Source: a virus
Taxonomy: Duplodnaviria > Caudoviricetes
DNA length: 58,248 bases
IMG/VR virus record: IMGVR_UViG_3300021197_000769
Coordinates: 1-58,248 of that record
Reading direction: 5' to 3' (one strand)
The position numbers were made by a program, and so were the translations under genes. Of the stretch, positions 450 through 41,025 are shown in pieces (positions within the stretch are counted from its first letter, which is position 1; each line of letters opens with the position of its first letter). A model generated the notes under the pieces. The model did no database searches. It had not been told where the DNA came from and saw only the letters and a program-made list of their open reading frames with translations.

Positions 450-3400
450 TTACTTTATTTTTTTTGTTGTTACTTTTACTTTTTTTGATTGCATTTTTTT
501 CCCCCCTTTGCTAAAAAATTTAATCGATTTATCTTTCTTAGCCTTTTTTTCTGCCTCTTGCTCTTTCTTTGTTAACCCAAGTGACCACTTATCCCAGCCT
601 AGTACTAAACCTATTCTTTGATAAGTGTGCATGTCTTCAGTTATAGCAGCTTCAACATTTTGAGCTTTTCTAATTACCCTATCTAATGGAACATTTCCTA
701 CGGCTGCTACAGTGTTACCTACAGCTAAATAAGCTGGGTTTTGTATATCAAATCCCATTGTTTCCATTTTATCTTTATCCCATTCAAAAGCTTTACCAAC
801 TGATTTTATTTTGCTGTACTTAGAAGATATAGGTGGGGATATTTTTAATAGCTCATCAGCTACATTACTATATTTAGGTCTGTCTTTTTCGCTTTCTTTA
901 TAAATTTTAAGCCCTACATTTTTTATTGTAGATACTACAGCCCCGGCAATACCAGTACCTCTTAATATAGAATCTAGCATTGAGTTCGCAATATTGATAG
1001 TTTTGTCAGTTGTTAAACCTTCTTCGTCTTCATCATCAAATGCTAAGCCAATTAATGCTTGTTGTAAGGCGGTAAATATAAGGTTCTGTACAGCCATGTA
1101 ATAAACAATCTTAGATATATTTGTTTTAGCGTCCCCACGCCCATTCTTAAGGTCTAAGACGGCTTTTTTTGTTAATCTAGCATATTGAGATGGGGTATTT
1201 GCAAAAGCTAATATAATGCGTCCTAATGGACCCGCTTGTTGCTGACTAATTTTATCTGGCCGACTTGATTGCTGAGAATCTTCTGCAGCTTCTCTAAAAT
1301 CATCAAAAGCCATTTGTTCTGCTTCAGCTTGGCTTAGCGTATCATCAGCCTTCATTAATGAATTAATTCTATTTCTATAAAAAGTTGCGCCACCTGAAGA
1401 TATTGCAAAGCTATCAGCTATCTGCGTAGGTGTAAATCCAAGTTGTAGTAATCTTGCTATTACAGCTTTAGGCCCGCCTTTTTTAGCTAAGCTTGCTATT
1501 TCTGCCTCTTCTACTTCCATTTTAAGCCCACCTCTACGATCTACTAAGTAGTCAGAATTAAATAAATACTTAAAATCTTTCCAATATTGTTTTTGATTTG
1601 CGAATGCTTTCCCAGCCGCAATTGGGTTGTTATCTGACCAATTTATAAAGTTAATTGAAGATATTGTTTGCAGAATAGCAGATCTAGTATTGAAGAACAT
1701 AATAACACCAGTAGACGCATTAAGGTAATCCATAAACCTACCTGTTAATCTATCCATATTTGGAGATCTGTTTCTACCACTCTTCATTCTATCTAATGAA
1801 TTTTCAAGGGCTTCTCTATAGTTACTACCAAAAGCGGCTTGTAATTTATTAAGGTTATCACTTGAAAATATTTCATCAACATTATTTTGCCATACTTGTA
1901 AATATTTTGTTCTAGTATCTGTATTAAGAACCTCTAAAAGATCTGTGGTTATGGTTCCTGTGGTCCAACTTTTTTCTGGCTTAGCATATCCCTCATTTTT
2001 AGTAAGTGCTATCAATGTATTTGCAAATTGCTGAAGTTCAGGATTTTTATTCATAAACTCCCCAAGTTCTGCTTTATCTGAATCATTTATTCCAGGAATA
2101 GTATTGCCTTGCTTGGTCCATATGTGATACCGAACGGCTTGTTCTCTTGTAAAATCAGATCCTGGTATTTTTTTAGCTAAGTCTTTAGGTGTTATATCTA
2201 ACTTATCTACTAAAGCATTGTAGTTTTTCATCATAGATATTCTAGCAGCACTTATATTTCTCATTGCTGCCGCATAAGGATCTAACAAGTTTTCCTTGTA
2301 CCACGCCATTTGAGCATCTCCTACTTTGCCTTTACCTAAAGTTGTGTACAATAATCCTAAAAAATCTTCTGCACTAGGCGGTATAAAGAACTTAAACCTT
2401 CCTTTACCATCACCTCTTACTTTTGCTCTTGCTGCAGACACCTCTCTACTACTTGGTATACCTGTTTTGTTTTCTATTATGTCGTTAAACGTTTTATTAA
2501 GACTTTGTTTTTTGCTAAACTTTATTTGTTTGTCAACTTCGTCGTCATATATGGCTTCAGCATTATCAATAGTTTCTTGAACAGTAGGCTCACCCTCTAA
2601 TTGTGAATCTTTTGGTAAAGCTTTATTATTTCCTTCTGCTGCTTTCTCTTTGGATTTTTGTAATGCTTTTTCTTTTAATGACACCTTATTGCCAGAAGCA
2701 TCTATACCAATGTCTACAGCAAAGCTTTTACCATTTATATTTATTAATGTTGACGGGTCTATTCCCCCTTTTATTTTTGCAACTTCTGGATTAAAATACC
2801 TATCATACCAGTTTTTCCAGCCTTCTGGCATTAATAATTTAAACCCTGCAGCATTTACCTTATTATTACTATCCTCACTTAAAGCTATTATATTATAGTT
2901 GTCTTTTATTTTATTAAATTCCGTTTTAAAATCTTTTTTAGGATCTAATATAGATTCCATTAAATTAAGGTAAGCTAACTGAGATGGCACAGCGTGCTCA
3001 TAATATAATTTACCAGCGTTTAATTGATAGCCTGTTATAGGGGCCCCTATTCTATGGGGATTAGTAGACTCATTGATTGAGTTTTCTAAAAAGTACATTA
3101 TAGGAACAGCCATATTTTTGTCTTTGCTTATAATGTCATTTATGTCATTCCACATTTTGTCAAAAACTTTACTGTTCTTTTCGTTATACTTATCTATTTT
3201 ACCACTTTTTAAAGCTTTTTTAAATTTTTCTTCAGTAGACCCTATAGCTCTACTAGGGCCTGTTCTCCCAACTGTAACTCTTTTAGGTAAATTTAAAGCC
3301 GCTAACCTTTTTCTTAAATAATTAGATATAGCCTTGTCTCCGCCTAAAGCTTTTGACCTAAATTGTAGAACAGTTCTGTTTAAAAGCTTAAAGTCCTCTG

Positions 3401-6400
3401 TGTTAAAAATATTTATTAATGGAAGAACCATATTATTTATATAGTTGTCTACATCCTTTTCCGTTCTTATCTCTGTATAGTTTAAATTATACTTGTTTAA
3501 TAAGTCTTTGCTTGATTTACTAAACATTATGTCTGCTTTACCAGCAGCTATATCCTGTTTCTCTTGGACTGTAACATCACCATATTCTCTAATCAGTTGA
3601 TTTGCAGATAATCTAGCCATAAGGTTTATCATACCTTGTAGCGTCTTGCTTTCTCTACCTCTTCCTGACGCATCAACAGTAACCATTAAGTCACCATTTG
3701 CATCCATACCAAAAGCTCTTAGAACATCTGTTTTATCTAAACCTCTTTTTAATATAAATGGTGCTAACCCATTCTTCTTTGTGAACCTAGGATTCTTATT
3801 ATATAACTCTTGTAATATGTTATTAGGTAAGTTAGTAGCAGTTCCTTGTAATTCCTTGCTAGTTAAACCACCTGGAGGTATTGCACCCTTAGGCAATAGT
3901 TTTAATATTAGGTCAATGTTTTCATTAGCCCATGCTCTAGCCGAAGTGTAATCCGCTCTATTAAATACAGTTTTCTTATCGGATAACTTTTTAACCGATA
4001 TTTTTAGTTCTTCTGAAATAGGTTCCAAAACGGCTAGTAAGGCCGCATCGTTTTTTTTAACGCCTATCTTTGCAAAGGTTCTTTCCTTAGCCGGTATATC
4101 CTTAGTTACTTCTTCTATTGTATCGATTGTTTTGTTTAATGCAACTTCATCCGCAATAAATTCTTCAGCTGGTTTTATTAAATCTGCAACCCTAGCGTCT
4201 TCTTCTGCAATTTCTATTGCTGTGCTAGTGGATTCAAAAGGCAATACATCATCTGATGCAATACCTCGCATACCTTCACTTTCAATGTCTTTTGTAAAGT
4301 CTGTTCCTAATATTCTCTCCGATGCGGCTATTGCTCTTAATGGCAAATTTTTATTTATGTATGCTGCAAGCGGAACACCTGATTCAGGCTTGTAGGTTCT
4401 TATTAAATCTATTAAGCCTCCTTTACCTGTGTTTATTTCGTCAGTTAGCAATTGTCTATCAAACCCAGGAGCATTCTCCCTTTTGTTAACAAGCCCGGCA
4501 ACCATGCCTCCAAACTGTTGTATTATTTCAAAGCTTCCATCAACACCTTTTTCTTCGTATATTTTTTGTACTTTTTCAGATGCCGCTTTTCCTGCCTCTG
4601 TTACAGGCTTAGCTCCCTCTTTTGCTTTTGGCTTAGCCTTAACCTCCGTAGGTCCTTGCTCTTCTATCTGCTTAATTTTAGCTTCTAGTACTGCTTCTTG
4701 AGATTCAAACTCTTCAAAGCTTATTTCACCAGCATTTCTTTTATCAAATAGGTCATCTATTTGCTTGCCAATTTTATTGATTTCAGATTTTTGAGCAGAG
4801 GTTAATGCTTTTGAAAACTTTATTTTGTCTTTGCTTTTAGGCTTTTTAATGCCTGCAAGTTTCTTTTGGGATTTAGTTAATTTACCTTTTTTAATACTTT
4901 TGTTGTAGTCTTTTACAAAATTTAATACGTCTTGGCCTGTATCAAATTTTATCTTAACACCCATTTTTTGTAATATCTCTCTTAAAATATTACCTATTTT
5001 AGCTAAAGTACTTTCATTAATGTTAAAAGTACCCTCAGCTAAAGCGTCCGATGTTAATGTTAATATTTCTTCCCACTCTACATCAAAGTCACCCGAAGTT
5101 AGTATCTTATCAACGACCGCATCCCATCCTTCAGGGTTTACGAGTTCATTTGTTTTTTTGTTTTTTACATATTGGCTTATTCTTTTCCCAAGCTTACTAG
5201 TCTTCATTTGCTCAGGATTAGAATCGTATAAGAACTTAAATAATTTCTTGCCTAGTTCGGCGCTTTGGCCCTTTTTTGTAAAAGACTTAGCAAGTAAAGC
5301 GTGTAAAAATTCGTGTGCAGCAACATTAACGTCTTCCGCTACTGCTGAAGCGTCTTTATTAATTACTATTACATTAGATCCATCTTTAAGTGTTATAAGA
5401 AAGCCCTGTGCTTCTCCAACAGAGTCTATCATTCTTTCTCCCTCTTTCGCTTCCTCTTTATCTTTAAATGGTTGCCTTTTACCTTCCTTAATTAAGTTCT
5501 CAACATAGCTTCGTACTTCTTCCCCTGTTTGGAATGTTTTAACTTCTGTATTTTCAAATCCTTCTGTTAATTTTTCAACTGTTTCTAAAGTTTCTTCAAA
5601 CCCGCCTAAATCGTTAATTGTTTCATTTAGTGCATCAATCTTTTTTTCTAGCTTAGTAATCTCTTCAGGATCAGTTGCTTCTTCAATATCAAATTTGTAG
5701 TCTTCTCTTTCCTCAATCAATTCATTGATTTTTGCTCTATTATCTGCTTGTTCAGCAACTCCACCATCTATTAAATCCCCTCCTAAAAACACATTTCTAG
5801 TAACTTCTTCCCCATCTACAATTATGGTTTTCTTAGAAGATGGCTTAACTTTTTTCAATGCCTCAGGAATGTCACCATCTATTACAATCTTTTGATTCCT
5901 ATTCAACGTCGGCTTTTTAAATTCCCCCTCAAAAATAGGTCTTGCTTCTATCAACGCTAAAAATTTACTTTTATCCCCTGATACTTTGTCTAGTTTAGAT
6001 TGTAAATTTTCTACTGTTTCTTTAGTATTGCCCCTTGCTTCAAGAGCTTTTTCTAAAATAGCCTCCTGTGCAGTTAAATCAAGTATTGTTCTATTTTCAG
6101 CGGCAGTTGCTTTAGTAGCAATAGTTTCTGCTGTTTCAAAAGTATTTATAAACTCTTCTGTTAGTAAATTTATTTGCTCCTTAACATTTTTTGAATCAAA
6201 CCCAGGTTGGTTAGCATTTGCTTGTGACAATAAATTTTCAACGGTTTTGTTAATTCTATTTATATTTTTTAATTCATTATTTTTTAAATATAAATATTGT
6301 GCCCCTGGAATAGTTGCAAATGTTGCAGATGTTGGCAATGACGCCGAAGCTTCAATAGCCCCCTGCCTAGCGGCCTTAGTAAAGTCCAATTCTTTACCTT

Positions 6401-8255
6401 TTGCCCAATCGTCAATTAAGCTTTCTGAACCCCCTTGAAAAAGTTCAGTACCGGGCTCTACAAAAATTGCATTTACAGCATCTTTCCCAAGCTGTCTTTT
6501 TAGTCCCGGATCTATTCTAATGCCTTGTCTTGTTGCTGCAGAAATAGTTTTGTTAACCGAACCAAGGCTACCTTTTATCATTTTGCCAAATTGGAATGTA
6601 TCAACCAAACCAAGTGTTCCTACCAAGCCAGATGCAACTCCGGCGCGGCCTTTGCTAACACCTTCTTTTCTAAGATTGTAATATGTTTCTTTCTGAAGAG
6701 CATTAGCAACTATGTATTTACCCGCCACTGGTATTGCCGCCGCAGCCATATACGAAGCAGATTCAAAGCCTAGCTTTGCTGCACCATTTATAAATCCAGT
6801 AATATCTCCATTTGCTAGCCTATCAATAACATCCTCTGTTTTATATAATTGAGGCCCACTTATTGCCTTTGAAGTTCTGTCTAGCTCGTCATAGTATCTT
6901 CTTAAAAATACGTCGTCTATGTCTTCCCCTGTTTTTTTTGATTCTTTTTTTGCTGTAGCGTAAGCGTTTTTTGCAGAAATTGTTACCATTCCTGCACCAC
7001 CAATTGGGGCAGCTTCAAATGAGCCTAAAACACCCGATACCTGTTCCGCATCTAAAAACCAGTCTAAACCCTCCGCTGCAAGCATTTTTAGACCTTTACT
7101 AAAAACATTGTAAAATCCTGCCGCACTTGCTCTTGCACTTCTAGTATATTCACCAGTCTCGGCGGCTTCAATTTGTTGGTTATTTATAGCTTGTAAATAC
7201 TCGTCGTTTTTTATATTTAGTTTAACAGAACCTTCCCCATTTAATATATCTTCATATTTATTTGATCCTAAAAATTTTTCCATTTCAGAACGAGGCACAG
7301 CTTTATTATCTATATAATATTCTGCTCCAGCTTCGTAAAAATCAACATCTGTATTTTTCTTTATTAAGTCTGCTTTTAATTTTTCTATTGTTTTTATTTG
7401 GCCCTCTAAATTAGTTCTTTCAGGGCTATCAAGCGGGTTTGCAAAATCAGCCACTCCTATTGGTCTAAATGTAGCTTTAGGCGTAGGTAGGTTTTCTATT
7501 TCTTCTTTTAGCTTTGCTATACGCTCATCAAAGGCCTGCAGCTGTTCTGGAGTGGTTCTTTTAATATCTCCAAGTACCTCTTTTCTACCGGGTACAAGGT
7601 TTATGTTAGATTCCCTCCACTCTGTTATGTTGTTGCCATATTTAGCATTAAGATTAGTAAACTTTTCTGCATTTTCATTTAATATTTTTAGCTCTTTGTT
7701 CACCTCTTCCCGCATTGTATCATCAACGGATTCAGGATTTGCATTGGCGGCAAAGTTTAAAGCATCGAGTGCTGCTCTAGCGGCATTGGCTTTTTTAGCA
7801 TAAGAGCTTAAGCTATCTTGTGCTCGGAAAAATTCATCATTTATCAATGCTATCTCACTAACCTCCTTATCTGGATCTAATGCCCTATCAATAGCTAATT
7901 GTCTTTTTTGCTCTGGTGATATTGTAGACGGATCCACGATAACCTTTGGGGTTACTGGTTCTATTTTCGGTTCTAAATTTATTTTAAACTGAACTTTTGG
8001 ATCATACTTATCTTCATTATCCTCTTCTTGTGGCGCTAAAGGTCCAACCCCAGATGCTGAAACTTCTTCCGTTGCTGTGGCCACATCTTCCTCCACAACA
8101 ACATCTTTCTTTCCCGGCTTTTCAACTGCAAATTTCTCAAAAAAACTTTTAGCCATTGCATCTATATCCTCTTCGGAATATCCTTGTTCGTACATTAGCT
8201 TGGAATTGGCGTTAAGCCTATTTAGCATTTCAGGTGTTAATTCTTTATCGTTCAT
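450..8255 (-). CDS. Giant internal virion/ejection protein, polyvalent-type: zincin peptidase + sigma70-like + HNH-like + membrane-associated C-terminal domain
   Basis: 2601 aa; last and largest of three genes after the tail genes (T7 gp14/15/16-like order). HEFLH at 5301-5315, sigma region 2-like 4305-4532, region 4-like 3978-4118, EHAVP..N..N at ~2860-2999, hydrophobic helices near the C-terminus. Confidence 0.8.
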   Translation of the reverse strand: MNDKELTPEMLNRLNANSKLMYEQGYSEEDIDAMAKSFFEKFAVEKPGKKDVVVEEDVATATEEVSASGVGPLAPQEEDNEDKYDPKVQFKINLEPKIEPVTPKVIVDPSTISPEQKRQLAIDRALDPDKEVSEIALINDEFFRAQDSLSSYAKKANAARAALDALNFAANANPESVDDTMREEVNKELKILNENAEKFTNLNAKYGNNITEWRESNINLVPGRKEVLGDIKRTTPEQLQAFDERIAKLKEEIENLPTPKATFRPIGVADFANPLDSPERTNLEGQIKTIEKLKADLIKKNTDVDFYEAGAEYYIDNKAVPRSEMEKFLGSNKYEDILNGEGSVKLNIKNDEYLQAINNQQIEAAETGEYTRSARASAAGFYNVFSKGLKMLAAEGLDWFLDAEQVSGVLGSFEAAPIGGAGMVTISAKNAYATAKKESKKTGEDIDDVFLRRYYDELDRTSKAISGPQLYKTEDVIDRLANGDITGFINGAAKLGFESASYMAAAAIPVAGKYIVANALQKETYYNLRKEGVSKGRAGVASGLVGTLGLVDTFQFGKMIKGSLGSVNKTISAATRQGIRIDPGLKRQLGKDAVNAIFVEPGTELFQGGSESLIDDWAKGKELDFTKAARQGAIEASASLPTSATFATIPGAQYLYLKNNELKNINRINKTVENLLSQANANQPGFDSKNVKEQINLLTEEFINTFETAETIATKATAAENRTILDLTAQEAILEKALEARGNTKETVENLQSKLDKVSGDKSKFLALIEARPIFEGEFKKPTLNRNQKIVIDGDIPEALKKVKPSSKKTIIVDGEEVTRNVFLGGDLIDGGVAEQADNRAKINELIEEREDYKFDIEEATDPEEITKLEKKIDALNETINDLGGFEETLETVEKLTEGFENTEVKTFQTGEEVRSYVENLIKEGKRQPFKDKEEAKEGERMIDSVGEAQGFLITLKDGSNVIVINKDASAVAEDVNVAAHEFLHALLAKSFTKKGQSAELGKKLFKFLYDSNPEQMKTSKLGKRISQYVKNKKTNELVNPEGWDAVVDKILTSGDFDVEWEEILTLTSDALAEGTFNINESTLAKIGNILREILQKMGVKIKFDTGQDVLNFVKDYNKSIKKGKLTKSQKKLAGIKKPKSKDKIKFSKALTSAQKSEINKIGKQIDDLFDKRNAGEISFEEFESQEAVLEAKIKQIEEQGPTEVKAKPKAKEGAKPVTEAGKAASEKVQKIYEEKGVDGSFEIIQQFGGMVAGLVNKRENAPGFDRQLLTDEINTGKGGLIDLIRTYKPESGVPLAAYINKNLPLRAIAASERILGTDFTKDIESEGMRGIASDDVLPFESTSTAIEIAEEDARVADLIKPAEEFIADEVALNKTIDTIEEVTKDIPAKERTFAKIGVKKNDAALLAVLEPISEELKISVKKLSDKKTVFNRADYTSARAWANENIDLILKLLPKGAIPPGGLTSKELQGTATNLPNNILQELYNKNPRFTKKNGLAPFILKRGLDKTDVLRAFGMDANGDLMVTVDASGRGRESKTLQGMINLMARLSANQLIREYGDVTVQEKQDIAAGKADIMFSKSSKDLLNKYNLNYTEIRTEKDVDNYINNMVLPLINIFNTEDFKLLNRTVLQFRSKALGGDKAISNYLRKRLAALNLPKRVTVGRTGPSRAIGSTEEKFKKALKSGKIDKYNEKNSKVFDKMWNDINDIISKDKNMAVPIMYFLENSINESTNPHRIGAPITGYQLNAGKLYYEHAVPSQLAYLNLMESILDPKKDFKTEFNKIKDNYNIIALSEDSNNKVNAAGFKLLMPEGWKNWYDRYFNPEVAKIKGGIDPSTLININGKSFAVDIGIDASGNKVSLKEKALQKSKEKAAEGNNKALPKDSQLEGEPTVQETIDNAEAIYDDEVDKQIKFSKKQSLNKTFNDIIENKTGIPSSREVSAARAKVRGDGKGRFKFFIPPSAEDFLGLLYTTLGKGKVGDAQMAWYKENLLDPYAAAMRNISAARISMMKNYNALVDKLDITPKDLAKKIPGSDFTREQAVRYHIWTKQGNTIPGINDSDKAELGEFMNKNPELQQFANTLIALTKNEGYAKPEKSWTTGTITTDLLEVLNTDTRTKYLQVWQNNVDEIFSSDNLNKLQAAFGSNYREALENSLDRMKSGRNRSPNMDRLTGRFMDYLNASTGVIMFFNTRSAILQTISSINFINWSDNNPIAAGKAFANQKQYWKDFKYLFNSDYLVDRRGGLKMEVEEAEIASLAKKGGPKAVIARLLQLGFTPTQIADSFAISSGGATFYRNRINSLMKADDTLSQAEAEQMAFDDFREAAEDSQQSSRPDKISQQQAGPLGRIILAFANTPSQYARLTKKAVLDLKNGRGDAKTNISKIVYYMAVQNLIFTALQQALIGLAFDDEDEEGLTTDKTINIANSMLDSILRGTGIAGAVVSTIKNVGLKIYKESEKDRPKYSNVADELLKISPPISSKYSKIKSVGKAFEWDKDKMETMGFDIQNPAYLAVGNTVAAVGNVPLDRVIRKAQNVEAAITEDMHTYQRIGLVLGWDKWSLGLTKKEQEAEKKAKKDKSIKFFSKGGKKMQSKKVKVTTKKIK

Positions 8256-10762: not shown

Positions 10763-12529
10763 TTAAGATTTAACATATTTTGAGGATACCGCAAATAATG
10801 TTTTAGTACCACCTACATCTGTGGTGCTGTCGGTACTAATTTTAACAGTTGCAAAGTATCCTTTTATTCCGCTCATGCTATCGTTTGATGCCACTTGCCC
10901 TGGCATACCGAATGGTATACTTTGGGAAACAGCCCCTGTTGAATCAACACCTTTATTTATTAGGTTAGCATAATATTTGTTTTCTTTTCTATCAAATCCT
11001 ACTCTATATGTTATTCCACCTTCAATATATGCGCCCTCATCGTAGCTATATACAAGTGATGTTTTATCTTGATAGTTAATTGATTCTATACTAAGTCCCG
11101 TTGGGTCTGATAAAAAGTAATCCGACTGCCAACCGTTAGACCCTTCGTAGTTTACTGTTTGGAAATTTTTAGAGATATAAACATCGGGATTAAAGGATAG
11201 TATAACCGATGTTGGGTAATACGTTCCATAGAAGTACCCTCTATTATTAATTACACTTTTATCGTAATGTTTCCAAATAGATGCACCTTTGCATGTGTAA
11301 TAACTGCTATTTAATGTACCGCCAAAGCTTGGGTCGTAATCCCAAAAACTTGTCCAAGCATTATTTGATTCATTAAATGATAGTGTGTTGTACGTTTCTA
11401 TATTATCCCCATCATTAAATACTTGTGTTGATACAACATACTTATCATGGTAGTTGTCGTATGCTCCAACAATTTTATCTTTAACATAACTAAATAAAGA
11501 TATTTCTCCAGTATCACCCCCCGACAATGGATTGTCAAAAATAATATCAATATCTGGGTCGGTTTTTCCAATATATATATAAGCTTCAGGTGTAGGAGTA
11601 CTACCGCTGTTAAAAAATATGCCCTTTACATAAAAATTATTAGGGGTTATTCCTAATATACCCATACCTACTTCTATAGTATTAGGAATTTCTGTAGTTC
11701 CCTCGGGTAAATCTAAAATAAGGTACTCATTGCCTGGACCTATTTTTGCCGTAAAAGTATTCTCTTTTGATTTATTTATAGTGGTAACAGTAGCTAAGTC
11801 ATCTCTAAAGAAGTCTCTCATTCCATATGAACTTATTTCCGTTATACCATCTCTTGATAGCCTTAAAATAGCTCCTCTGCTTCTGTCAGAAAAATACATT
11901 CTGTATCCTTTAAAGGCAAAAGATTCTGGGTTTTGACTAATGCCATATTCTCCAGTATATTGGTTAACCTGGCCTAAAACTAACCTTGACGCTGTCAATG
12001 CAGGGTTTCCATCTGCAGTGTATATTGCGTCCTTGTCTATTAAGGCATTACTAACTTTATCTTCCTGAAATATTATTAGGTTGGTATCAGTGGTGTATAA
12101 CTTTTGTATGCCTCCGTATCTTGGGTCAACTTCTTTTGTTATGTTTTCTCCTGTAGAAAAAACGTTAGTTTCGTTTAATCCAGTTAACCGATTGTATAGT
12201 CCAGAGTATATTATTCCGTTGCTAAGTATTAGTTCTGAATCTTCAGACTCTGTTATATAAGCCTTTACTCCAAAATCTACTGATGTATTATTGTATCCTC
12301 CTCGTATCCTAGACTCTTCTATGTACCAATACTTTGTTTGGTAACCCTCAAAAGTTTGCCCGCCTAAAGCATATAGTGGAAATCGGGGATACCCTTCTAT
12401 ATTACTCCATGCTAGTCCAGGCCAAACAGCAGCTCCAGATGATTGCTCAGCAATTACTGGACCAACCCCCGTTGCAACCTTTTTTAACAAAAAAGAATTA
12501 AAGTACTGTACTTCTGTAGTAGCGCTCAT
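10763..12529 (-). CDS. Tail stabilization/nozzle (muzzle)-like protein, C-terminal-type part
   Basis: 588 aa beta-rich; motifs YGGIQKL, LIIFQEDKVS, GEYGISQNPES, YFSD..RGAILRLS.DGITEIS..GM recall crAss-like/P22 gp10-like tail stabilization proteins. Confidence 0.65.
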   Translation of the reverse strand: MSATTEVQYFNSFLLKKVATGVGPVIAEQSSGAAVWPGLAWSNIEGYPRFPLYALGGQTFEGYQTKYWYIEESRIRGGYNNTSVDFGVKAYITESEDSELILSNGIIYSGLYNRLTGLNETNVFSTGENITKEVDPRYGGIQKLYTTDTNLIIFQEDKVSNALIDKDAIYTADGNPALTASRLVLGQVNQYTGEYGISQNPESFAFKGYRMYFSDRSRGAILRLSRDGITEISSYGMRDFFRDDLATVTTINKSKENTFTAKIGPGNEYLILDLPEGTTEIPNTIEVGMGILGITPNNFYVKGIFFNSGSTPTPEAYIYIGKTDPDIDIIFDNPLSGGDTGEISLFSYVKDKIVGAYDNYHDKYVVSTQVFNDGDNIETYNTLSFNESNNAWTSFWDYDPSFGGTLNSSYYTCKGASIWKHYDKSVINNRGYFYGTYYPTSVILSFNPDVYISKNFQTVNYEGSNGWQSDYFLSDPTGLSIESINYQDKTSLVYSYDEGAYIEGGITYRVGFDRKENKYYANLINKGVDSTGAVSQSIPFGMPGQVASNDSMSGIKGYFATVKISTDSTTDVGGTKTLFAVSSKYVKS

Positions 12530-19495: not shown

Positions 19496-20983
19496 CTATG
19501 ATTTTGTAAATAATACAAAGTTGTTAGCAGCTTGAGTAACTAAACATCTTTCAGATAAGAAGTTAACTGTCATTGCATCTAAATCAGAAGTATTGGCACC
19601 TCCAACAGATCCAGTAATCCAAGACTTCATTCTTCTGTCGTCAGCCTCTGAAGCTCTATAACGTACGTGTAAGAATGGTCGTCTGATGTTAGTACCTAGC
19701 ATTTGATCGTATACTGTGCTTGTTCCAGCAGGAACTAATACACCTTCTACATTATCAATTAAACCACGAGTTGTAGCATCATTTAAGTATTTCCAGTCAG
19801 TCTTGTAGAAATCGTAAGAACCTCTTCTGAAACCGTCAAATCCTAAGTTTAATGCCATTTCTTCAGAGTTTTCAAATACACCGTAAGATGTACCACCTGC
19901 TCCGTAAGAATTTTGTGCAGCTAACATATCATCAAAGTCTAAAGAAGTAGCTCTGTCTAAGAATAACATATTCTCTTCAATAGCTCCTTGCTTATCAAGA
20001 TTTGCTAAAATTAAATCAAAGTCACCTAAAGCACTTCGTGTTCCAGCACCACCAGCTCCAGCACCACTTGCGTAGTTTTGGTATACGTTACCTCTTGCTG
20101 TAATAGCAGCAAAAAGACCTTCAGTACCAGCAGAATCTTGCCCACCTACAGCAGCTTTAACAGCGGCGCTTGTAGCAAGCTCTCCTTCAACCATTGCCAT
20201 TTCTAAATAGTCTTGGAAACGTAATCTTGTTTCTCCTTCAGACTTCAAGTACCATAGATATCCTGATGTTCCATCTTCAGCAGCAACTTCAACCCATCCA
20301 ATTTGTGCAGCATCAGAACCATTTACCTCATAAGTGTCCTTAATAATAATTGGTTTGTTACTGTACTGCTGGAATGAAGCCTCTAAAGAACCTTGCATTC
20401 CGAATGTTCCTTTAGCAAATTCAGAGCCATAAACAAATACGCTAAATTCTGCATCAGCTGTTAAGGCTGGAGTAGATATTGCGGCTAAAGAAGCAGCAGT
20501 ATAAGGAAGCACAGTAAAAGTAAGGGCATCTACAGCGCTAACGTAGCAAGTTACAGTTGTTCCAACTCCGTTAGTTCCGCCAGTAACTTGCAATACTACA
20601 GTATTACCAACTCTCATAGCATTTTTAGAAGCTAATCCATCGTCCCCTAATGCTGGCAACTCAAGTACTCCATTTGCTAATTCACCAGTAGCAACAGTAA
20701 CATCCGAATATCCAATGTGCAGCCTGTTTTGCTCAGACCATACAACTTGGTCAGAAGTCATTGGCATTTCAGCGCCTACCATTCTTAAGAATCCTGATAG
20801 AGTTCTGTTACCATATCGCTCTACCTCAGCTTCATAAAGTTCTGGTAAATACTGTTGTGAAAAGTCATTACCAGCTTCGCTAGTAAAATCTAAATAATTG
20901 TAAGGTGATGCACTCTTAGAAGGCATCGGGCTTAAATTGAATTTCCCTAAAGGGTCATTCGGTGTTGGAAAAAATTGTCCCAT
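19496..20983 (-). CDS. Major capsid protein
   Basis: 495 aa; portal-scaffold-MCP order, followed by a strong terminator; QQYLPELYE.EVERYGNR and GTEGLFAAI..RGN motifs of crAss-like/flavobacterial HK97-fold MCPs. Confidence 0.85.
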   Translation of the reverse strand: MGQFFPTPNDPLGKFNLSPMPSKSASPYNYLDFTSEAGNDFSQQYLPELYEAEVERYGNRTLSGFLRMVGAEMPMTSDQVVWSEQNRLHIGYSDVTVATGELANGVLELPALGDDGLASKNAMRVGNTVVLQVTGGTNGVGTTVTCYVSAVDALTFTVLPYTAASLAAISTPALTADAEFSVFVYGSEFAKGTFGMQGSLEASFQQYSNKPIIIKDTYEVNGSDAAQIGWVEVAAEDGTSGYLWYLKSEGETRLRFQDYLEMAMVEGELATSAAVKAAVGGQDSAGTEGLFAAITARGNVYQNYASGAGAGGAGTRSALGDFDLILANLDKQGAIEENMLFLDRATSLDFDDMLAAQNSYGAGGTSYGVFENSEEMALNLGFDGFRRGSYDFYKTDWKYLNDATTRGLIDNVEGVLVPAGTSTVYDQMLGTNIRRPFLHVRYRASEADDRRMKSWITGSVGGANTSDLDAMTVNFLSERCLVTQAANNFVLFTKS

Positions 20984-22219: not shown

Positions 22220-24625
22220 CTATCTAGGCCCGAACTTCTCTAGCCCAAAGCCCCCTAATACATCATTACCTGAACTTTCAAAGTTTTTCGGTAATAGGTT
22301 ATTTTTTCTTTGGTCAATCATTTCAGACTGCTGTGTACCTGTTATTTTTACACGCTTATCTTTCCTGTCCTCTATTTCTTTTTCTCTTTCAGATTCAGAC
22401 TTGATTCGCGCTTGGGCTAATTGCATGTTAAAGTTAAACTCTTCAGCCATAAGCTCTCGCTTAATTTGTGCCTCTGTTTGCATTCTTTGTATTTCAAACT
22501 GAGATTTAGCTTGCTCAAGATTTACTTTTTCTGCTGTCAATGCTTGCTGCTTTTGAACTTCTGCCATTGCGGTCTGTTCTGCTAGCTGTGCATTAGCTTG
22601 TGCTTGTGCCTGTATATTAGCTTGTTGCGCTTGTTGTGCAGCGGCTGCTTTTTCTTTTCTTCTAGTCTTTAATATCTCATTTGCTAACTGAAGATTTTTT
22701 ACTTGCCTAATGTCTATTGCATCCTCTAAATCAATACCACCTGATTGCAAAGCAACTTGAATATTTTGTTCTAGCTGTGCCTTTTCTTCTTCATCTGGTT
22801 CTAACTCTAAGAATATACCAAAGTCATGTAGGTTAAGTTCCTTTATGCTATCTAACGTAGCAACATTAAAATGCGTTATACTGTTCTTTAATGAGTTCGC
22901 AGTTAAAGCATATTCTAATGAATCAGCTATTCTTCTCGAGACGTTTTCGCACGTTCTAAGAGCTAAATAACAACTTGCTTGCAATATATGTCTTGTTGCT
23001 ACATTGGATTGGTTAGCGGCCATCTTTTGCAGCCCTACGAGTGCATCTTTAGCTGGAGCAGAACCGTCTCTTGCTTCATTCAGCCCAGTCACATCCCGTA
23101 TCATTTGCAAATAGTATTGATATGTTTGGATTAGTGATTGTATTTTTGCCCCTCCACTCGATGTCTGTAGCTCTTGAATCGGCACCTTGCCTCTATTCAA
23201 TTCACCATCTTGCGTCATAGACCTACCTAAAACACTACCCGTTTGGAAATACATATTAAGTGCTTCGGCAGGATTGTAGTTTGTTCCGTTACCTAAATCA
23301 ACTTCTGCTAAGCCGTCAACATCTAAGAATACTCCGTCAGGAACCATTCTAGACATTACTTGCTGTAACTTAAGGTGAGTTAACTGAATCATATCCGCAA
23401 ACCCAGTAATTCTATTTACTAATGAATCAATTCTTCCATTATAAATTCTAGGGGCACATATAACATAATTCATATCTACCTTAGTAGTATCTGCAAATGG
23501 TCTTGTCATATTTTCCGCAAGCTTCCATTCTAGCATTTGGTTATTGCCTAATACTTTTGCTCCACTATATAATACCTCTATGCTTCTTGATACTCTTTTA
23601 AACGTATCATTTTCTGGCGGATTAAAGCTATCTGTCTTTTGTATTGCTTTTTCTAATCCATTTGCGCCTTGCTTTATTTTAAATACTTGATTGTTGTATG
23701 TCTTGTATTCAAAATATAATATTTGTACTGTATTCTCGTCATACCCTTGCCAGCCTGTAATGTAGTTTCTATTGCCTGGCATTTCCTCAATACGCTTAAG
23801 CTCATCTTCCGGTATATTTGGAAATTGCTTTTTTAACTCAGGTATTGATACTGATCTCACTTCCCCTACATAATATATGTCTTCAAAGTTTGGATCATCT
23901 GTATAAGAATAAACCATATTAGCTGGATCACAATACTCTGTAACAACACCATTTGCTTTGTTCCAAGTTGTTTTTACTGCCCCTATGCCTAATACGGTTA
24001 AATCGTAATTGTATCTTTTCCTAACCTCATTAAACTTGTTTTTAGCAAGTACTTGGTTTATAACTTCTTCTTCCGCTATTTCTATTGATTGCTTATAGTC
24101 AAGCTGCATATGAGTAGCTAACTCTTCCGGCGTATCAGGAAGCTTATCAGGATTGTCTGTATTAAATGCGTCAATTCCTGTTTCTTCTTTAAGCTTAAGA
24201 AGCTGCTCTTTCATTATGATGTCTTGCAACATCTTTTGAGCATAGTCAGTTCTTTTCTTTGTAGAGCCAGGGTCTTGTGCATAAGCTTTTATCTCGTACT
24301 CTTTTTCTGTAATACCATTAGACACTATATCTACAAACTTTGAAATTACAGGAACTGGCTTCCAATCAAGGTTTAAGTAAGATAGATCGCCATTTATTGC
24401 TAGCTCATCTTTATATTTTTGCACGGGCTGTTCGCCTCTTGCATATAATCTAAGTGTATGGAAATGATTGTAATTTGTAGCAAATCTATTGCCAACTCCT
24501 CCTTGCTGGAACCATTCTGCTTCAATTGCTCTACCAACCTGAACGCCATATTCATAGCTTGATTTTTCCTCATCACTAACAACTTGGCTAGGGAATACAC
24601 TGTTTGGATTTGCGCCTACGTTCAT
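22220..24625 (-). CDS. Portal protein
   Basis: 801 aa directly after the terminase; IRDVTGLNEARDG motif; long Gln/Ala-rich C-terminal coiled coil (P22/crAss-like barrel). Confidence 0.85.
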   Translation of the reverse strand: MNVGANPNSVFPSQVVSDEEKSSYEYGVQVGRAIEAEWFQQGGVGNRFATNYNHFHTLRLYARGEQPVQKYKDELAINGDLSYLNLDWKPVPVISKFVDIVSNGITEKEYEIKAYAQDPGSTKKRTDYAQKMLQDIIMKEQLLKLKEETGIDAFNTDNPDKLPDTPEELATHMQLDYKQSIEIAEEEVINQVLAKNKFNEVRKRYNYDLTVLGIGAVKTTWNKANGVVTEYCDPANMVYSYTDDPNFEDIYYVGEVRSVSIPELKKQFPNIPEDELKRIEEMPGNRNYITGWQGYDENTVQILYFEYKTYNNQVFKIKQGANGLEKAIQKTDSFNPPENDTFKRVSRSIEVLYSGAKVLGNNQMLEWKLAENMTRPFADTTKVDMNYVICAPRIYNGRIDSLVNRITGFADMIQLTHLKLQQVMSRMVPDGVFLDVDGLAEVDLGNGTNYNPAEALNMYFQTGSVLGRSMTQDGELNRGKVPIQELQTSSGGAKIQSLIQTYQYYLQMIRDVTGLNEARDGSAPAKDALVGLQKMAANQSNVATRHILQASCYLALRTCENVSRRIADSLEYALTANSLKNSITHFNVATLDSIKELNLHDFGIFLELEPDEEEKAQLEQNIQVALQSGGIDLEDAIDIRQVKNLQLANEILKTRRKEKAAAAQQAQQANIQAQAQANAQLAEQTAMAEVQKQQALTAEKVNLEQAKSQFEIQRMQTEAQIKRELMAEEFNFNMQLAQARIKSESEREKEIEDRKDKRVKITGTQQSEMIDQRKNNLLPKNFESSGNDVLGGFGLEKFGPR

Positions 24626-26839
24626 TTAATTTATTATTTTTGAATAACTTCCAGAATTGTCATATCTTTTCATTCCTAGATTTATATTTTTTCTTACTAC
24701 TTTATTTATTGGCGCATAACGGTTTCTGTTACAAGCCATAATGGCCAAGCCAGAGCTAATAGAAGCATCATGCTTTGTTCTATTATTTATATTAAATCTT
24801 GCCCAGTCTTCTAACGTTCTTTGAAAGTAAACGTCCCCCATTTCATCATCACCTAAAATTCCAACAAGTTCCTCTATATATGTTTCTATTGCAGCAGCAT
24901 GAGCCTGAATAATATCTTGACTTGAGTTAGGTATACCACCTATTTCTCTTTCTGTAACTGATAACTTATTATACGCTTTATCTGGTCTATTCATTGAATA
25001 CCCTCTATAGCCTCTATTTTTAAAATGGTATAATAGTCTAGGCTTATTGTTCTCTGCTAATATTGGCATACCATAAAATACGCAAGCCATTAATACATCC
25101 TCAAAAAACATTTCTGCCGTTTGAGGCCTAGCAATATATTCTAAAAAGAAATGATTAGCAGGAGCTTCTTCCATACTAAACTTTGTTAGCCCATGCAAAG
25201 CGCCATTAGAGCCCCTACTATCCACTGTTCCTGATATATCGTAACTATCACACCCAAACGCTCCTAAGTGTTCATTACCCGGATAATTTGTTCCGTGCTT
25301 AGATATAATCCTATTTTGTAAACTAATAGGAGGTATCCATGAAACATGAAACCTTCCGTCTTTATTTGGCATAAACATCACTTTAGTGTCTTTAATACCA
25401 TTTTCCCATTGAAAGTTTCCCCTTGTAACTAATGTACTTGCAGCCATAGATTCATTGTGGTCTATTTGCTGGTATATTTTTGTTAGATTAAACAGAGACT
25501 CCTTCGCTTCATCTCTAAAAGCGTGCTGTTCTGTTCTTGGAAACTGTCTATAAAATTCATTCAACCCATCTTGGTCGTCTTTTAAACCTGCAACTTCATT
25601 GTCCCAAAACTCAATAACGCCCTGTTTAATAGGCATACCATAAGGGTCCTCTACTTTGCCTTCTGGTTTATCGAATACAGGTAGCCCATAAGAATCGATG
25701 TATCCTTCGTAATTCCATTCCATAGGTATGAACAAAGAATATAGTCCTGAGCTAGTCTGTCCATTGCTGTTCCTTCTTGTAACGTCTGACGCATAATATA
25801 ATTTTTTAAAATTATCTCCTCCCTTGTCTAAAGCATTTGATGTTGAACCCATCATGCACTTCCCTATTATCCTGCTACCTAATCTAAGACAAGTCTTTGT
25901 AACTCTCCAGTTATTTAGTATATTATTAGGTTTCTCCCATTTGCCGGATTCATCGTGTACAAGTAGTTTTAATTTTTCTCCATCATAGGAGTTATCACCT
26001 GTATTTTTCCAGTCAATCGTAGTATCCAGTCCTTTGAGATCTTCCGGGTTCTCATTAGCATCAAGTTTCCTCCTTGTAAGCTTTGAGGCCGGTATCCTAT
26101 ATGCAAGCTCTGTCTTTGGTCTGTCCATACCATCTTGTATGGGCTTAAAGAAGAACGGGTAGTTAACCGAGATTGGTACAACCTTGTCGGTAAACATCTT
26201 TTTTGCATCAGGCCCCGACTTCGAAAGTATTCCGTATCTGGAATCAACTGATATTGTAGCAAGGTTGACTGTCTCTCCTGACGACATAAAGGAGAATCCA
26301 CTCCGTCTATTTTTAAGATAACACATTCCAAAGGATCTATAATCCGCTTTGCAGGCTTCCCAGAATATATAGAATAATCTGTTTGATTCCCTAAAGTCTG
26401 GTGGTCCAACATCAATCTTTGACCATTGCAGGTACATATAATGAGTCCCAGTAATGTAAGTAGGATTACCCTTATTATTAAACCAAAATCCCTGCTCTCT
26501 TCTTTCAAATTCTTTTTCAATGTAATCGTACCATTTTTCTTTAAATTCTTCAGGATACTCCTTCCAATCAAAAATTGTTTTTATTCTACTTAATTCTTTT
26601 GGGTACTCTGTATGGGACCACTTTTTGTCTTTAAAGTTATGAGTTTCAAACTCAGCAGGTAAGGCTATTTTAAGATTTTGTATTTCATAAATCTCTCCTA
26701 TCTTACCAGTTTTACTTATAATGACCATGTCATGATCCTCATCATAACCATACTTCCAGGTCTTGTGCCTGTTTTTCTTTTTTATGGTGGATGCCTTTAT
26801 GTAGTTGTCTAGAACTTTATATAGTGTCTGCTCGTACAT
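24626..26839 (-). CDS. terL: Terminase large subunit
   Basis: Walker A-like KNRRSGFS, Walker B LLVHDESGKW, coupling motif GSTSN, RNase H-like GCDSYD and HDASISSG. Start placed at ATG 26839 (MYEQ), just after the upstream stop; the ORF track extends to 26884. Confidence 0.9.
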   Translation of the reverse strand: MYEQTLYKVLDNYIKASTIKKKNRHKTWKYGYDEDHDMVIISKTGKIGEIYEIQNLKIALPAEFETHNFKDKKWSHTEYPKELSRIKTIFDWKEYPEEFKEKWYDYIEKEFERREQGFWFNNKGNPTYITGTHYMYLQWSKIDVGPPDFRESNRLFYIFWEACKADYRSFGMCYLKNRRSGFSFMSSGETVNLATISVDSRYGILSKSGPDAKKMFTDKVVPISVNYPFFFKPIQDGMDRPKTELAYRIPASKLTRRKLDANENPEDLKGLDTTIDWKNTGDNSYDGEKLKLLVHDESGKWEKPNNILNNWRVTKTCLRLGSRIIGKCMMGSTSNALDKGGDNFKKLYYASDVTRRNSNGQTSSGLYSLFIPMEWNYEGYIDSYGLPVFDKPEGKVEDPYGMPIKQGVIEFWDNEVAGLKDDQDGLNEFYRQFPRTEQHAFRDEAKESLFNLTKIYQQIDHNESMAASTLVTRGNFQWENGIKDTKVMFMPNKDGRFHVSWIPPISLQNRIISKHGTNYPGNEHLGAFGCDSYDISGTVDSRGSNGALHGLTKFSMEEAPANHFFLEYIARPQTAEMFFEDVLMACVFYGMPILAENNKPRLLYHFKNRGYRGYSMNRPDKAYNKLSVTEREIGGIPNSSQDIIQAHAAAIETYIEELVGILGDDEMGDVYFQRTLEDWARFNINNRTKHDASISSGLAIMACNRNRYAPINKVVRKNINLGMKRYDNSGSYSKIIN

Positions 26840-26840
26840 A

Positions 26841-27125
26841 TTAACTGAATTTGGCTCTACCTTCTGCAAACCCTTTAAACTCACTTTTCTTTTTAGTGCT
26901 GTCTTTGGGTTTATCTTCTAACATTTCTTTTTCTTGCTCAATTCTATTTAGAATTTCAAAAGCATCAAAAATCGCTAGCTTCTTAGTTGCTGCGGCATTC
27001 TTTAACTTATCCGCGGCTAAGTCGTCGTCTGAATCAACAATAGCTTCTTTAGCTACTTTTATTAATTCTTCAACCGCTCTTTGTCCAGCTTGGATTATAC
27101 TCTTCTTCGTTTCCTTTACGTTCAT
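26841..27125 (-). CDS. Putative terminase small subunit
   Basis: 94-aa helical protein immediately upstream of terL; DKLKNAAATKKLAIFDAFEIL motif. Function is positional. Confidence 0.55.
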   Translation of the reverse strand: MNVKETKKSIIQAGQRAVEELIKVAKEAIVDSDDDLAADKLKNAAATKKLAIFDAFEILNRIEQEKEMLEDKPKDSTKKKSEFKGFAEGRAKFS

Positions 27126-27666
27126 GCTTCGCAACGATATTAATTAATTTCATACAATATAATAGTTCGCCATCAATGATAAACTCAAACTCTGACGCTG
27201 GTCTAAAGGAAACTAAATCCTCTTCATTTATTCCAAGGCCAACCAAACCTTTGTTGCCAAACTTTAATATTCCTATAAGTGGCTTTTCCGAATCTAAAGA
27301 AAATATATCGTGATTTACTAAAGGCTTTACAAAACAATAATCAAGATGAGTCTTGTTTGCTCCATACATATATATTTGATCAGGTGAACAAACATACATA
27401 TCTTCTTTAATAAAACTTCTACTGTTTTTCTCGTTGCCTCTAATATCATAGAACCTTCTAAATACATTGTGATGCACTATAACCTTATCCCCAACTTTTA
27501 TGTCAGTTTTTATAGCTAACGGTAAAGCAACAACTTCTGCTACTTTACTTACACTTTTAAATTCTTCAATTCTTGTATTGACTATTAGGTCAACCTCATC
27601 AATCTTTACAGTATTATTGTATCGACCCTCTATGGGTTTTACGATAAAATCGTGAATACTTTTCAT
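27070..27666 (-). CDS. GroES-like protein with two tandem GroES folds
   Basis: Two units, each with F.VKP, an (AEVVA/GILKF) strand and (IKVGDKVIV / INEEDLVSF); second unit ends EFIIDGELLYCMKLINIVA like cpn10. Confidence 0.6.
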   Translation of the reverse strand: MKSIHDFIVKPIEGRYNNTVKIDEVDLIVNTRIEEFKSVSKVAEVVALPLAIKTDIKVGDKVIVHHNVFRRFYDIRGNEKNSRSFIKEDMYVCSPDQIYMYGANKTHLDYCFVKPLVNHDIFSLDSEKPLIGILKFGNKGLVGLGINEEDLVSFRPASEFEFIIDGELLYCMKLINIVAKHERKGNEEEYNPSWTKSG

Positions 27667-31205: not shown

Positions 31206-31462
31206 AAAACAACAACAACGTCAAATTCTTTAATAACCTTATATATCACTTTATCAATCTCCATATCAAACCCCGCGTGTCTATCGTAGTAAATAGTGTC
31301 TCCATCTTGTACTCCTTCAACTAGCGTTCCTATGGTCTTCACTTTAGCTTCCCTGTACCTTATATCTTCTCTGTGGCTCTCTCCTAAAATTAAACCACCT
31401 TTAGTAGATACTTCTTTCTCCTTTACAGGCTCTATCAACATATACTTCCCTACTGCCTTCAT
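31202..31462 (-). CDS. groES: Co-chaperonin GroES
   Basis: MKAVGKYMLIEP..E..TKGGLIL (mobile loop), V..IG..V.GV..GD.IYY; adjacent to groEL. Confidence 0.9.
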   Translation of the reverse strand: MKAVGKYMLIEPVKEKEVSTKGGLILGESHREDIRYREAKVKTIGTLVEGVQDGDTIYYDRHAGFDMEIDKVIYKVIKEFDVVVVL

Positions 31463-33000
31463 TATGCTCTTAAGTTATTAATTACACAATCGGTTGCTAG
31501 TATCGTATTGGCTACAGATGCCGCATTCTTTAATGCACTCTTTGTAACAAGTAGTGGGTCAACAATTCCTGCCTTAATCATATTGACTAATTTTCCTGTA
31601 ACTACATTGTAACCATACCCTTTTTTAGTAGGGTATTCAAATTTAGTGATATCAGCATTGGACATTATAACATCAAATGCAGCTCTAATAGCCTTTAAAA
31701 GTATTTCTTCTCCTATGTTAGATGGTGTTATCTTATCACTAGCATTTAGTAAAGCAATTCCTCCACCTGGAAGTATACCCTCTTTAATAGCTGCCTTAGT
31801 AGCACAGATTGAATCCTCAACCCTGTCGGCCTTCTCTTTTAATTCAACCTCTGAGTTAGCTCCTACTTTAACGACACCAACCTTACCTCCAAGTCTTGAA
31901 AGCCTTTTTTCAAGTAAGTGCTTCTTTCCGTTAATCTTTGTAGTCTTTAATTCTTTCTTAAGTTGCTTAATTAAGTCTTTAACGTCATCACTCATCCCAT
32001 CCACTTGGATGATTGTTTCGTCAGATGTAGTTGTTGACTTTAAGCACGTTCCTAAGTGACTCACATCAATTAGGTCCATATCGTCTCCAAGGTCTTCGTT
32101 TATTACTGTAGCTCCTGTTAGAACTGCGAAGTCTTGTAGTGTTTGCTTTTTATTTATGCCAAAGTCAGGTGCATCAATAATGTTTGCCTTGATGTTACCC
32201 TTTGATACATTCATTGAAATTGCTGTAACTAATTGTTCGTCAGCATCTCCAATAATTAATAGTTCTTTCTTGTTTTTAATAACGTGTTCAAGAATGCTTT
32301 GAACCTTTCTTACGTTGGGTATCTTGCTCTCTACGATTAGTACAAGCGGGTTATTTAACTCACAAGCACCTTTCTCTTTGTTATTGATAAAGTGGTGGTT
32401 TTTTAATCCTTTATCTAACGAAGCTCCATCAACTATTTCAACCGATGTTTCTTCGTCATTAGATATTTCCATACTTACCACACCATTCTCACCAACGTCT
32501 TCGAAAGATTTAGCTATCATTGACCCTAAGTTAGAGTCGTTGTTAGAAGATATTGTAGCAACCTGCTTTAGCATATCACCACTTACGTCTACAGCCTTAC
32601 TTTCTAAGTACTTAACAACCTTTTCAACGGCAGAGCTTATTCCATCTCTTACCTCTCTTGAGTTGTAGTCCTTTGTTTCAAATGCCTCTTTTAAAATAGA
32701 GTGCGCTAGCACCGTAGCAGTTGTTGTTCCGTCCCCTGCTTCCTTAACGGTTTGTCTAGCTGCTTCCTTTAGAAGCGTAGCACCCATATTTTCAACAGGG
32801 TCTAGTAGCGTAATTGAATTAGCTACTGTCACCCCATCCTTTGTGATTAATGGTTTTCCAGATGAGTCCTCAAGCATAACGCACTTACCGCTTGCTCCTA
32901 GCGTGGAGCTTACTGCCTTAGTTAGCTTTGATACACCTTCAAACACTTTATTTTTACCTTCGTCTCCGAAGTTTAGATTCTTAACGATTTCGTTAGACAT
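31462..33000 (-). CDS. groEL: Chaperonin GroEL
   Basis: ITKDGVTVA, GDGTTTATVLA, GILPGGG, GIVDP..VT.SAL.NA.SVA signatures; 512 aa, no GGM tail. Confidence 0.95.
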   Translation of the reverse strand: MSNEIVKNLNFGDEGKNKVFEGVSKLTKAVSSTLGASGKCVMLEDSSGKPLITKDGVTVANSITLLDPVENMGATLLKEAARQTVKEAGDGTTTATVLAHSILKEAFETKDYNSREVRDGISSAVEKVVKYLESKAVDVSGDMLKQVATISSNNDSNLGSMIAKSFEDVGENGVVSMEISNDEETSVEIVDGASLDKGLKNHHFINNKEKGACELNNPLVLIVESKIPNVRKVQSILEHVIKNKKELLIIGDADEQLVTAISMNVSKGNIKANIIDAPDFGINKKQTLQDFAVLTGATVINEDLGDDMDLIDVSHLGTCLKSTTTSDETIIQVDGMSDDVKDLIKQLKKELKTTKINGKKHLLEKRLSRLGGKVGVVKVGANSEVELKEKADRVEDSICATKAAIKEGILPGGGIALLNASDKITPSNIGEEILLKAIRAAFDVIMSNADITKFEYPTKKGYGYNVVTGKLVNMIKAGIVDPLLVTKSALKNAASVANTILATDCVINNLRA

Positions 33001-40831: not shown

Positions 40832-41025
40832 GGTTATACATATATTTTTTTACAAATTTTCAAAAAGGAAATGATTTTCATTTTACCCAGCCCCCCAGGT
40901 TTTTTCTGGATCGGCGTATATATACCGGGTTTTTACGATTTTCCTGCCACATATTTGAGTTTTTCTGGGGCAGCACACGACAGCGAGCGCAGCGAGCGGA
41001 GCGAAGCGGAGGGGGTGTATAGCAC

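Follow-up and report, generated by a model that had tools for sequence, protein, structure and literature searches.

A recurrent phi-x-F-S-K junction motif in a giant, putatively zincin-containing protein of a marine podovirus and its possible role in self-processing

The virus contig IMGVR_UViG_3300021197_000769 (58 kb, estimated 91% complete), whose 58,248 nucleotides are referred to here as the window, encodes a giant open reading frame (ORF), P0001, of 2601 amino acids (aa). Downstream of a putative zincin (metallopeptidase-like) domain, P0001 carries three copies of a short motif, phi-x-F-S-K, with a hydrophobic residue at -2, a variable residue at -1 and Phe at 0. We find that phi-x-F-S-K is a real, conserved junction motif in the family of P0001, and we consider self-processing by the cis-encoded zincin to be its best explanation, with about an even chance of being correct. 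An earlier note, prepared by a model from the DNA letters, had proposed this reading; its motif, module swaps and zincin signature hold up, while site C, site A, two weaker motif variants and family members with an altered HExxH do not fit it as well. The features of P0001 are as follows.

450..8255, minus strand: giant ORF P0001, 2601 aa, the last virion-module gene seen in the window
5616..8255, minus: N-terminal region, aa 1-880
7095-7109, minus: NVFSK, aa 383-387, probably chance
4851..5615, minus: putative zincin domain, aa 881-1135
5301..5315, minus: HEFLH, aa 981-985, upstream of site A
5067..5069, minus: E1063, candidate third zinc ligand, on helix aa 1061-1074 (model H181-194)
4809-4823, minus: site A, IKFSK, aa 1145-1149
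4659..4799, minus: predicted helical hairpin, aa 1153-1199
4302..4595, minus: predicted sigma-factor region-2-like fold, aa 1221-1318
3546..4178, minus: second part of the module between sites A and B, aa 1360-1570
3516-3530, minus: site B, IMFSK, aa 1576-1580
2658..3515, minus: swappable cargo module, aa 1581-1866, with conserved E1753-H1754
2526..2657, minus: linker, aa 1867-1910, which travels with the C-terminal module
2511-2525, minus: site C, IKFSK, aa 1911-1915
453..2510, minus: conserved, helical C-terminal module shared by the whole family, aa 1916-2601
507-524, minus: IKFFSK near the C-terminus, aa 2578-2583, probably chance

The junction motif in P0001 and its family

On recount, the motifs and HEFLH lie exactly where the earlier note had placed them. 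I[KM]FSK occurs in three copies in P0001 against 0.006 expected from composition, and at least three copies arose in 0 of 20,000 shuffles; at least five FSK tripeptides, the number present, arose in 0.065% of them. When all six frames of the window were read from stop to stop (frames of at least 60 aa), the only other FSK in a frame matching a listed gene was one LNFSKT in a 1300-aa neighbour. Two weaker variants had also been put forward as sites; both exist, but neither is conserved, with NVFSK kept in one of eight aligned relatives and any [FYL]S[KR] in 16 of 242 C-terminal tails, the region of IKFFSK. The serine codons of sites A, B and C (TCA, AGT and AGC) come from differing codon families, so selection acts on the protein rather than the DNA, and a DNA-level recombination signal is ruled out for the same reason. 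A frameshift signal is likewise ruled out, as no heptamer is common to the three sites. Apart from one at its 3' end, no minus-strand ORF of at least 100 aa overlaps the P0001 gene.

A word-indexed search returned 2197 relatives of P0001 (1430-4552 aa), all metagenomic, and an exhaustive search with aa 900-2000 gave 1510 cluster representatives at 50% identity; the family is very abundant in marine metagenomes. Motif counts below refer to 259 collected proteins that are related to one another and were chosen by similarity to P0001. Together they contain 536 FSK tripeptides, where 174 are expected, and at least two copies are present in 166 of the 259. At the column homologous to site B, 134 aligned relatives have F in 100, S in 121 and K in 98; at site C, the counts among 210 are F in 144 (plus Y in 31), S in 165 and K in 143. 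The flanking linker columns at both sites are at most about 40% conserved, and F-S-K is thus an island of conservation at two homologous linkers. The preferred context is I, V or L at -2, K, M or Q at -1 and S, T or A at +3, and variants include LSK, YSK, FSN, FSL and FYD.

Between sites B and C, longer cargo regions tend to hold more FSK copies, albeit not in every length class: the mean number of internal copies is 0 below 300 aa, 0.15 at 300-449 aa, 0.72 at 450-599 aa, 0.2 at 600-749 aa and 2.0 at 750-899 aa. Motif states at sites B and C are weakly associated (odds ratio 3.1, p 0.005, uncorrected for relatedness).

To place the motif relative to module borders, the 259 proteins were compared all against all by BLAST and alignment ends were binned around the Phe. 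Ends falling in the 10 residues after Phe are enriched 11.4-fold for FSK (524 instances) and 15.1-fold for phi-x-FSK (291 instances), compared with 0.7-2.2-fold for seven control tripeptides in the same bin; alignment starts are enriched 5-9-fold from -20 to +9. Individual exchanges illustrate the pattern. Six relatives, P0002-P0007, are 80-98% identical to P0001 on both sides of a swapped cargo, match it through ...AGKADIMFSK at site B, and are unrelated immediately afterwards; they match it again from KSKEKAAEGNN onwards, 46 residues ahead of site C. At site A, high identity of P0005-P0007 to P0001 begins within about 5 residues of the motif, and relatives with a divergent peptidase (HEGGH) turn highly similar within about 5 residues of IK[F/L]SK. 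Homologues therefore exchange modules at the motif at sites A and B, in line with a check suggested in the earlier note, and approximately so at site C.

Equally marked is the polarity of the motif. In the 244 of 259 family proteins that contain HExxH, phi-x-FSK occurs four times upstream of it and 270 times downstream, or 0.023 and 0.68 per 1000 aa, respectively. Measured against a composition estimate of about 0.055, the motif is no commoner than chance upstream and about 12-fold in excess downstream. The same holds among 67 IMG/VR genes with HExxH, which have 0 copies upstream and 67 downstream. We found no gene fission at the motifs: the giant gene is one contiguous ORF in 75 of 80 IMG/VR loci, four are cut by contig ends, and the fifth (L062) is broken by frameshifts away from any motif. 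In this last locus the gene lies in overlapping frames (L062:9589-9837 and neighbouring frames), probably through sequencing frameshifts.

The zincin-like domain and the exchangeable modules

The peptidase domain models as a lethal-factor-like zincin. H981, E982 and H985 of HEFLH are invariant in 35 of 35 rows of one alignment (A4) and 60 of 60 of another (A3), and E1063, a candidate zinc ligand, is invariant in A4 and at least 90% conserved in A1 and A3. P0001 has six histidines in all, two of them within HEFLH, and no cysteine. In the AlphaFold2 model, HEFLH sits on helix H98-111, which is preceded by three strands. The zincin assignment of the earlier note is thus supported by the HExxH plus downstream Glu signature and by the predicted fold; the WEE helix that it described is present at aa 1061-1063 (5067-5075), one base off the position given (~5068-5076). 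No curated peptidase family was matched in Pfam (E <= 1) or PHROGs (E <= 0.01), and sequence searches with P0001 returned nothing from Pfam, PHROGs, PDB sequences or, by tblastn, cultured phages. Against anthrax lethal factor (PDB 1j7n, 1pwv and 1yqy) the zincin model shows 10-13% identity, with most rows on the non-catalytic domain I.

Two AlphaFold2 models, built from alignments of collinear relatives, cover aa 881-1600 (mean predicted local distance difference test score, pLDDT, 74.6) and aa 1561-2601 (mean 68.6); the peptidase, aa 881-1135, is confidently modelled in the first. Site A falls in a stretch with pLDDT below 50 (model residues 258-269), as does site B in both models. The proposal that the motifs lie in linkers between domains fits the models at sites A and B and not at site C, which ends up at the end of the helix predicted for aa 1892-1916 (pLDDT about 77). 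Conservation differs among the modules: in 119 listed relatives, the C-terminal ~650 aa align in all (45-60% identity), aa 1226-1575 in about 96-109, the peptidase in about 80 and the N-terminal region in 3-9, the closest relatives only.

Following site A, the model has a helical hairpin (H273-294 and H300-319, pLDDT 81-91) and then a confident helical domain, aa 1220-1320, of which aa 1221-1318 resemble sigma-factor region 2. This likeness, based on fold and language-model evidence only, is a lead that we rate at somewhat below an even chance. Sigma membership by sequence was rejected: Pfam Sigma70_r2 matched 0 of 10 family segments at E <= 10, and hhalign against the sigma gene of the window gave 0.9% probability. 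The segment is present in only 22 of 80 IMG/VR loci. The second part of the module (aa 1360-1570, pLDDT 75-90) has no fold match covering it, and no sigma-4 domain was seen there. In some relatives (L010:8603-8980 and L063:8660-9031), I-V-K-F-S-K stands about 10 residues before the sigma-2-like domain, where most other loci have the conserved I-[IV]-K-E-S-R-S-E-E-A-S; it may be a degenerate or alternative junction motif. Separately, the window encodes a 251-aa phage sigma factor at 48651-49406 (plus strand; Sigma70_r2 E 3.7e-6, the only such match in the window), whose relatives are numerous and conserved, the best 120 listed of 8000 candidates scored being at least 70% identical.

The cargo module between sites B and C is well folded in the model (aa 1581-1860, pLDDT 85-93). 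In P0002-P0007 an unrelated module replaces aa 1581-1866, and other relatives carry a zeta-toxin-like P-loop kinase (P0027, P0059), DUF6934 or a HAD-like segment. No named relative of the P0001 cargo was found; Atlas returned only unnamed clusters, with a GH-E nuclease at 0.76 as a weak lead, and the search for stand-alone copies gave only one, a 169-aa protein. In the frameshifted locus L062 the cargo contains FDFDDT, a DxDxT motif of the HAD type, and MFSE stands at site C. The C-terminal module is predicted to be all-helical, with confidence at aa 1920-2160 and poor scores beyond. Foldseek and VIA-align searches of the whole aa 1561-2601 model against the PDB gave helical-hairpin noise only, which is not a fair test of the cargo or of most of the C-terminal module.

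Self-processing and its alternatives

We propose that a marine podovirus synthesizes P0001 as a single chain and packages it into its virions in that form, as a "polyvalent" polyprotein in which a variable N-terminal region is followed by a lethal-factor-like zincin, linker-separated modules and a conserved helical C-terminal module. The zincin would cut, in cis, the exposed phi-x-F-S-K linkers, either after assembly or after ejection into the host. Anthrax lethal factor follows a hydrophobic-x|hydrophobic cleavage rule and thermolysin-type zincins prefer a hydrophobic P1' residue; given this rule and the hydrophobic -2, variable -1 and Phe 0 positions of the motif, the cut would most likely fall between the variable residue and Phe (phi-x|F-S-K). 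The products would be an N-terminal/peptidase fragment of about 127 kDa, a module of 49 kDa that includes the sigma-2-like domain, a swappable cargo of 38 kDa and a C-terminal module of 78 kDa; their lengths, earlier estimated at about 1147, 430, 335 and 690 aa, come to 1147, 431, 335 and 688 aa from the site positions. In 75 of 75 full-length IMG/VR genes the giant ORF is in one piece, which agrees with selection for an undivided protein.

Several observations weigh against self-processing. EELFH replaces HExxH in about 3-7% of members. Four full-length members among the 259 (P0033, P0076, P0161 and P0183) and five of 75 IMG/VR genes show this change, within a recurrent clade pattern P-[LI]-E-E-L-F-H that puts Glu in place of the first His; these members, and one with HDVLH, still carry FSK motifs, and P0046 retains four FSK although it has no peptidase domain at all. 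The strict phi-x-FSK is missing from 100 of 259 members, and one clade of nine proteins has unlike sites, with LSK at site B and FYD at site C. Conservation at site A is weak, with FSK in 22 of 161 (the relaxed [FLY]S[KR] occurs in 62 of 161, against about 10% expected). Site C is not only modelled at a helix end but is lost, as IESSK or IESGK, in P0004 and P0007, two relatives whose flanking module is 88-89% identical. Cargo has also been inserted inside the C-terminal module, at about query aa 2302-2317, with no flanking motif: a zeta-toxin-like kinase in P0027 (aa 1061-1217) and an unidentified segment of about 150 aa in P0036. The family counts come from related proteins and are not independent events. 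Finally, the N4 virion RNA polymerase, which has a related zincin, is described as packaged uncleaved in PMC5512222. A predicted complex that paired the peptidase (aa 881-1140) and Zn with the linker around site B (aa 1561-1605) scored 0.01 and counts neither way.

In a first alternative, phi-x-F-S-K would be an uncut docking or assembly tag, carried by each module and bound by a common partner such as the portal, the inside of the capsid, the phage chaperonin or the conserved C-terminal module; the zincin would have another role, for instance on the host envelope or host proteins after ejection. Retention of the motif where HExxH is altered or absent, the helix modelled at site C, the uncleaved N4 polymerase and an ORF that is unsplit at the motif in all 75 full-length genes speak for such a tag, and a phi24B preprint (10.64898/2026.04.10.717836) proposes a peptidoglycan-degrading role for a polyvalent-protein metallopeptidase. 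A tag, however, need not sit exactly at module borders or only downstream of a peptidase, sites A and B are predicted to be disordered and are unpacked in the models, and no partner has been identified; we regard docking as unlikely. The members with EELFH, HDVLH or no peptidase would be explained directly if the linkers were instead cut in trans, by a host protease after ejection or by another, unrecognised phage protease, a mode known from T4 and phiKZ, where short motifs in head-internal proteins are cut by proteases acting in trans. The window offers little for this scenario: Pfam finds no peptidase family among the 20 other window ORFs scanned and PHROGs no protease in 20 scanned ORFs, the motif is confined among the other window virion proteins to the single LNFSKT, and the catalytic residues of the zincin are invariant in most members. 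Cutting in trans is, in our judgment, rather improbable.

A further alternative is that the motif has no dedicated function and reflects an inherited linker-capping preference, with breakpoints found there since recombinants that break folded modules are not viable. Breakpoints would fall in linkers anyway, many members do without the strict motif, and counts from the 259 related proteins do not represent independent events. Such a preference would nevertheless have to account for an F-S-K far more conserved than the surrounding linker columns, for its recurrence at non-homologous junctions with different serine codon families, and for a roughly 12-fold excess downstream of the peptidase that disappears upstream, and we consider it very unlikely. 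Self-processing by the cis-encoded zincin thus remains the reading that we prefer.

Virus lineage, known systems and meaning

The P0001 gene closes a minus-strand virion module that contains further structural proteins in addition to the following genes.

24626-26884, minus strand: terminase
22220-24625, minus: portal
19496-20983, minus: capsid-like "virion structural protein"
10763-12529, minus: 588-aa tail-region protein with the Crassvirus muzzle C-terminal domain PF25729 (E 2e-8)

The muzzle domain ties the lineage, by sequence, to crAss-like tail architecture, and the portal is 40-51% identical to those of Flavobacterium phage "elemo", of Cellulophaga, Tenacibaculum and Maribacter phages and of an uncultured podovirus. 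On these matches, the source virus is a podovirus related to Flavobacteriia and crAss-like phages, and the portal relatives make a marine member of the Flavobacteriia its probable host. Giant genes annotated as structural proteins occupy the same position in MW202828 (3859 aa; L003, 741-12320) and elemoE (3694 aa; L005, gp18), with two HExxH in the former and one in the latter. Neither protein has detectable sequence similarity to P0001, and no phi-x-FSK series was found in them; if they are processed, they must use a different site motif. Synteny with these annotated structural proteins, together with structural similarity, suggests that P0001 is packaged in the virion.

Elsewhere in the window, GroEL and a GroES-like protein are encoded at 31462-33000 and 27070-27666 (both minus), a pair also annotated in elemoE and MW202828. 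A 470-aa protein at 33943-35355 (minus) has a Laminin_G_3/concanavalin-A-like lectin domain (E 5e-17) and is possibly a receptor-binding or decoration protein. GC and AT skew flip sign at about 41000-42000, where the minus-strand virion block meets a plus-strand replication block that encodes ERF, a PDDEXK protein, a primase-helicase, thymidylate synthase and ribonucleotide reductase.

Its architecture places P0001 among the zincin-bearing polyvalent proteins of phages, and it would work like them. As in those proteins, a giant multidomain chain from a phage virion module combines a lethal-factor-related zincin, marked by HExxH and a downstream Glu, with variable effector-like domains; P0001 contains many unrelated domains that vary between relatives, and its gene comes after the terminase, portal, capsid and muzzle genes. 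Its C-terminal module resembles, in predicted structure, the C-terminal parts of other phage polyvalent or ejection proteins, with Foldseek/BFVD matches to PolyVal, LPD and MuF-C proteins at E 1e-10 to 1e-4 and low template modelling (TM) scores of 0.17-0.36; Pfam LPD and MuF models do not match P0001. Zincin autoprocessing was already proposed for phage polyvalent proteins by Iyer, Burroughs, Anand, de Souza and Aravind in 2017 (PMC5512222), the accessible part of which names no cleavage-site motif, whereas P0001 has a defined junction motif with polarity and a link to module swaps, as well as a putative sigma-2-like module.

A parallel may be drawn with the N4 virion RNA polymerase, a giant, ejected protein whose C-terminal domain is described in PMC13434306 as a C1 HExxH subdomain and a large helical C2. 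In P0001, too, a zincin-like HExxH subdomain precedes a long stretch that is mostly helical and has no known relatives. Unlike the N4 protein, with which no sequence similarity was detected, it has no RNA polymerase domain, and a virion RNA polymerase reading of P0001 was rejected for want of a DxDxD motif or any match. Internal or ejected proteins are cut at short motifs in T4 and phiKZ as well, as is only proposed for P0001; the prohead proteases responsible, T4 gp21 and phiKZ gp175, are separate, trans-acting proteins that cut after Glu and are not zincins, whereas the candidate protease of P0001 is part of its own substrate. P0001 further differs from lethal factor, to which it has no sequence-level match and from which no toxin function is implied, and from the sigma-70 family, as its segment is unmatched by Sigma70_r2 and no sigma-4 domain was seen with it.

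In the literature searched, some of it available in part and with subscription journals outside its scope, we found neither a defined cleavage motif for zincin polyvalent proteins nor a report of a virion-delivered sigma-like protein. The new elements are the junction motif with its polarity around the peptidase, the way in which it coincides with the borders of exchanged cassettes, and the candidate product map. Speculatively, and as a long shot, cleavage after ejection into a Flavobacteriia host could free a sigma-like protein that redirects host RNA polymerase to early phage genes, plus exchangeable effector cassettes bordered by cleavage sites. Delivery of such a protein would then stand in for the virion RNA polymerases that N4-like and crAss-like phages use.

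In summary, giant polyvalent proteins are common in phages and conjugative elements, and their self-processing has been long suspected, and assumed since 2017, but is unproven. The P0001 family supplies explicit, mutable candidate sites, a natural variant series (FSK, LSK, FYD and EELFH) and a clear four-product prediction. Confirmation could turn the motif into a tool for delimiting cargo cassettes in thousands of giant phage proteins that lack annotation, and would show how modules can change places while processing stays intact. A genuine sigma-2-like module would suggest a novel route by which host transcription is taken over.

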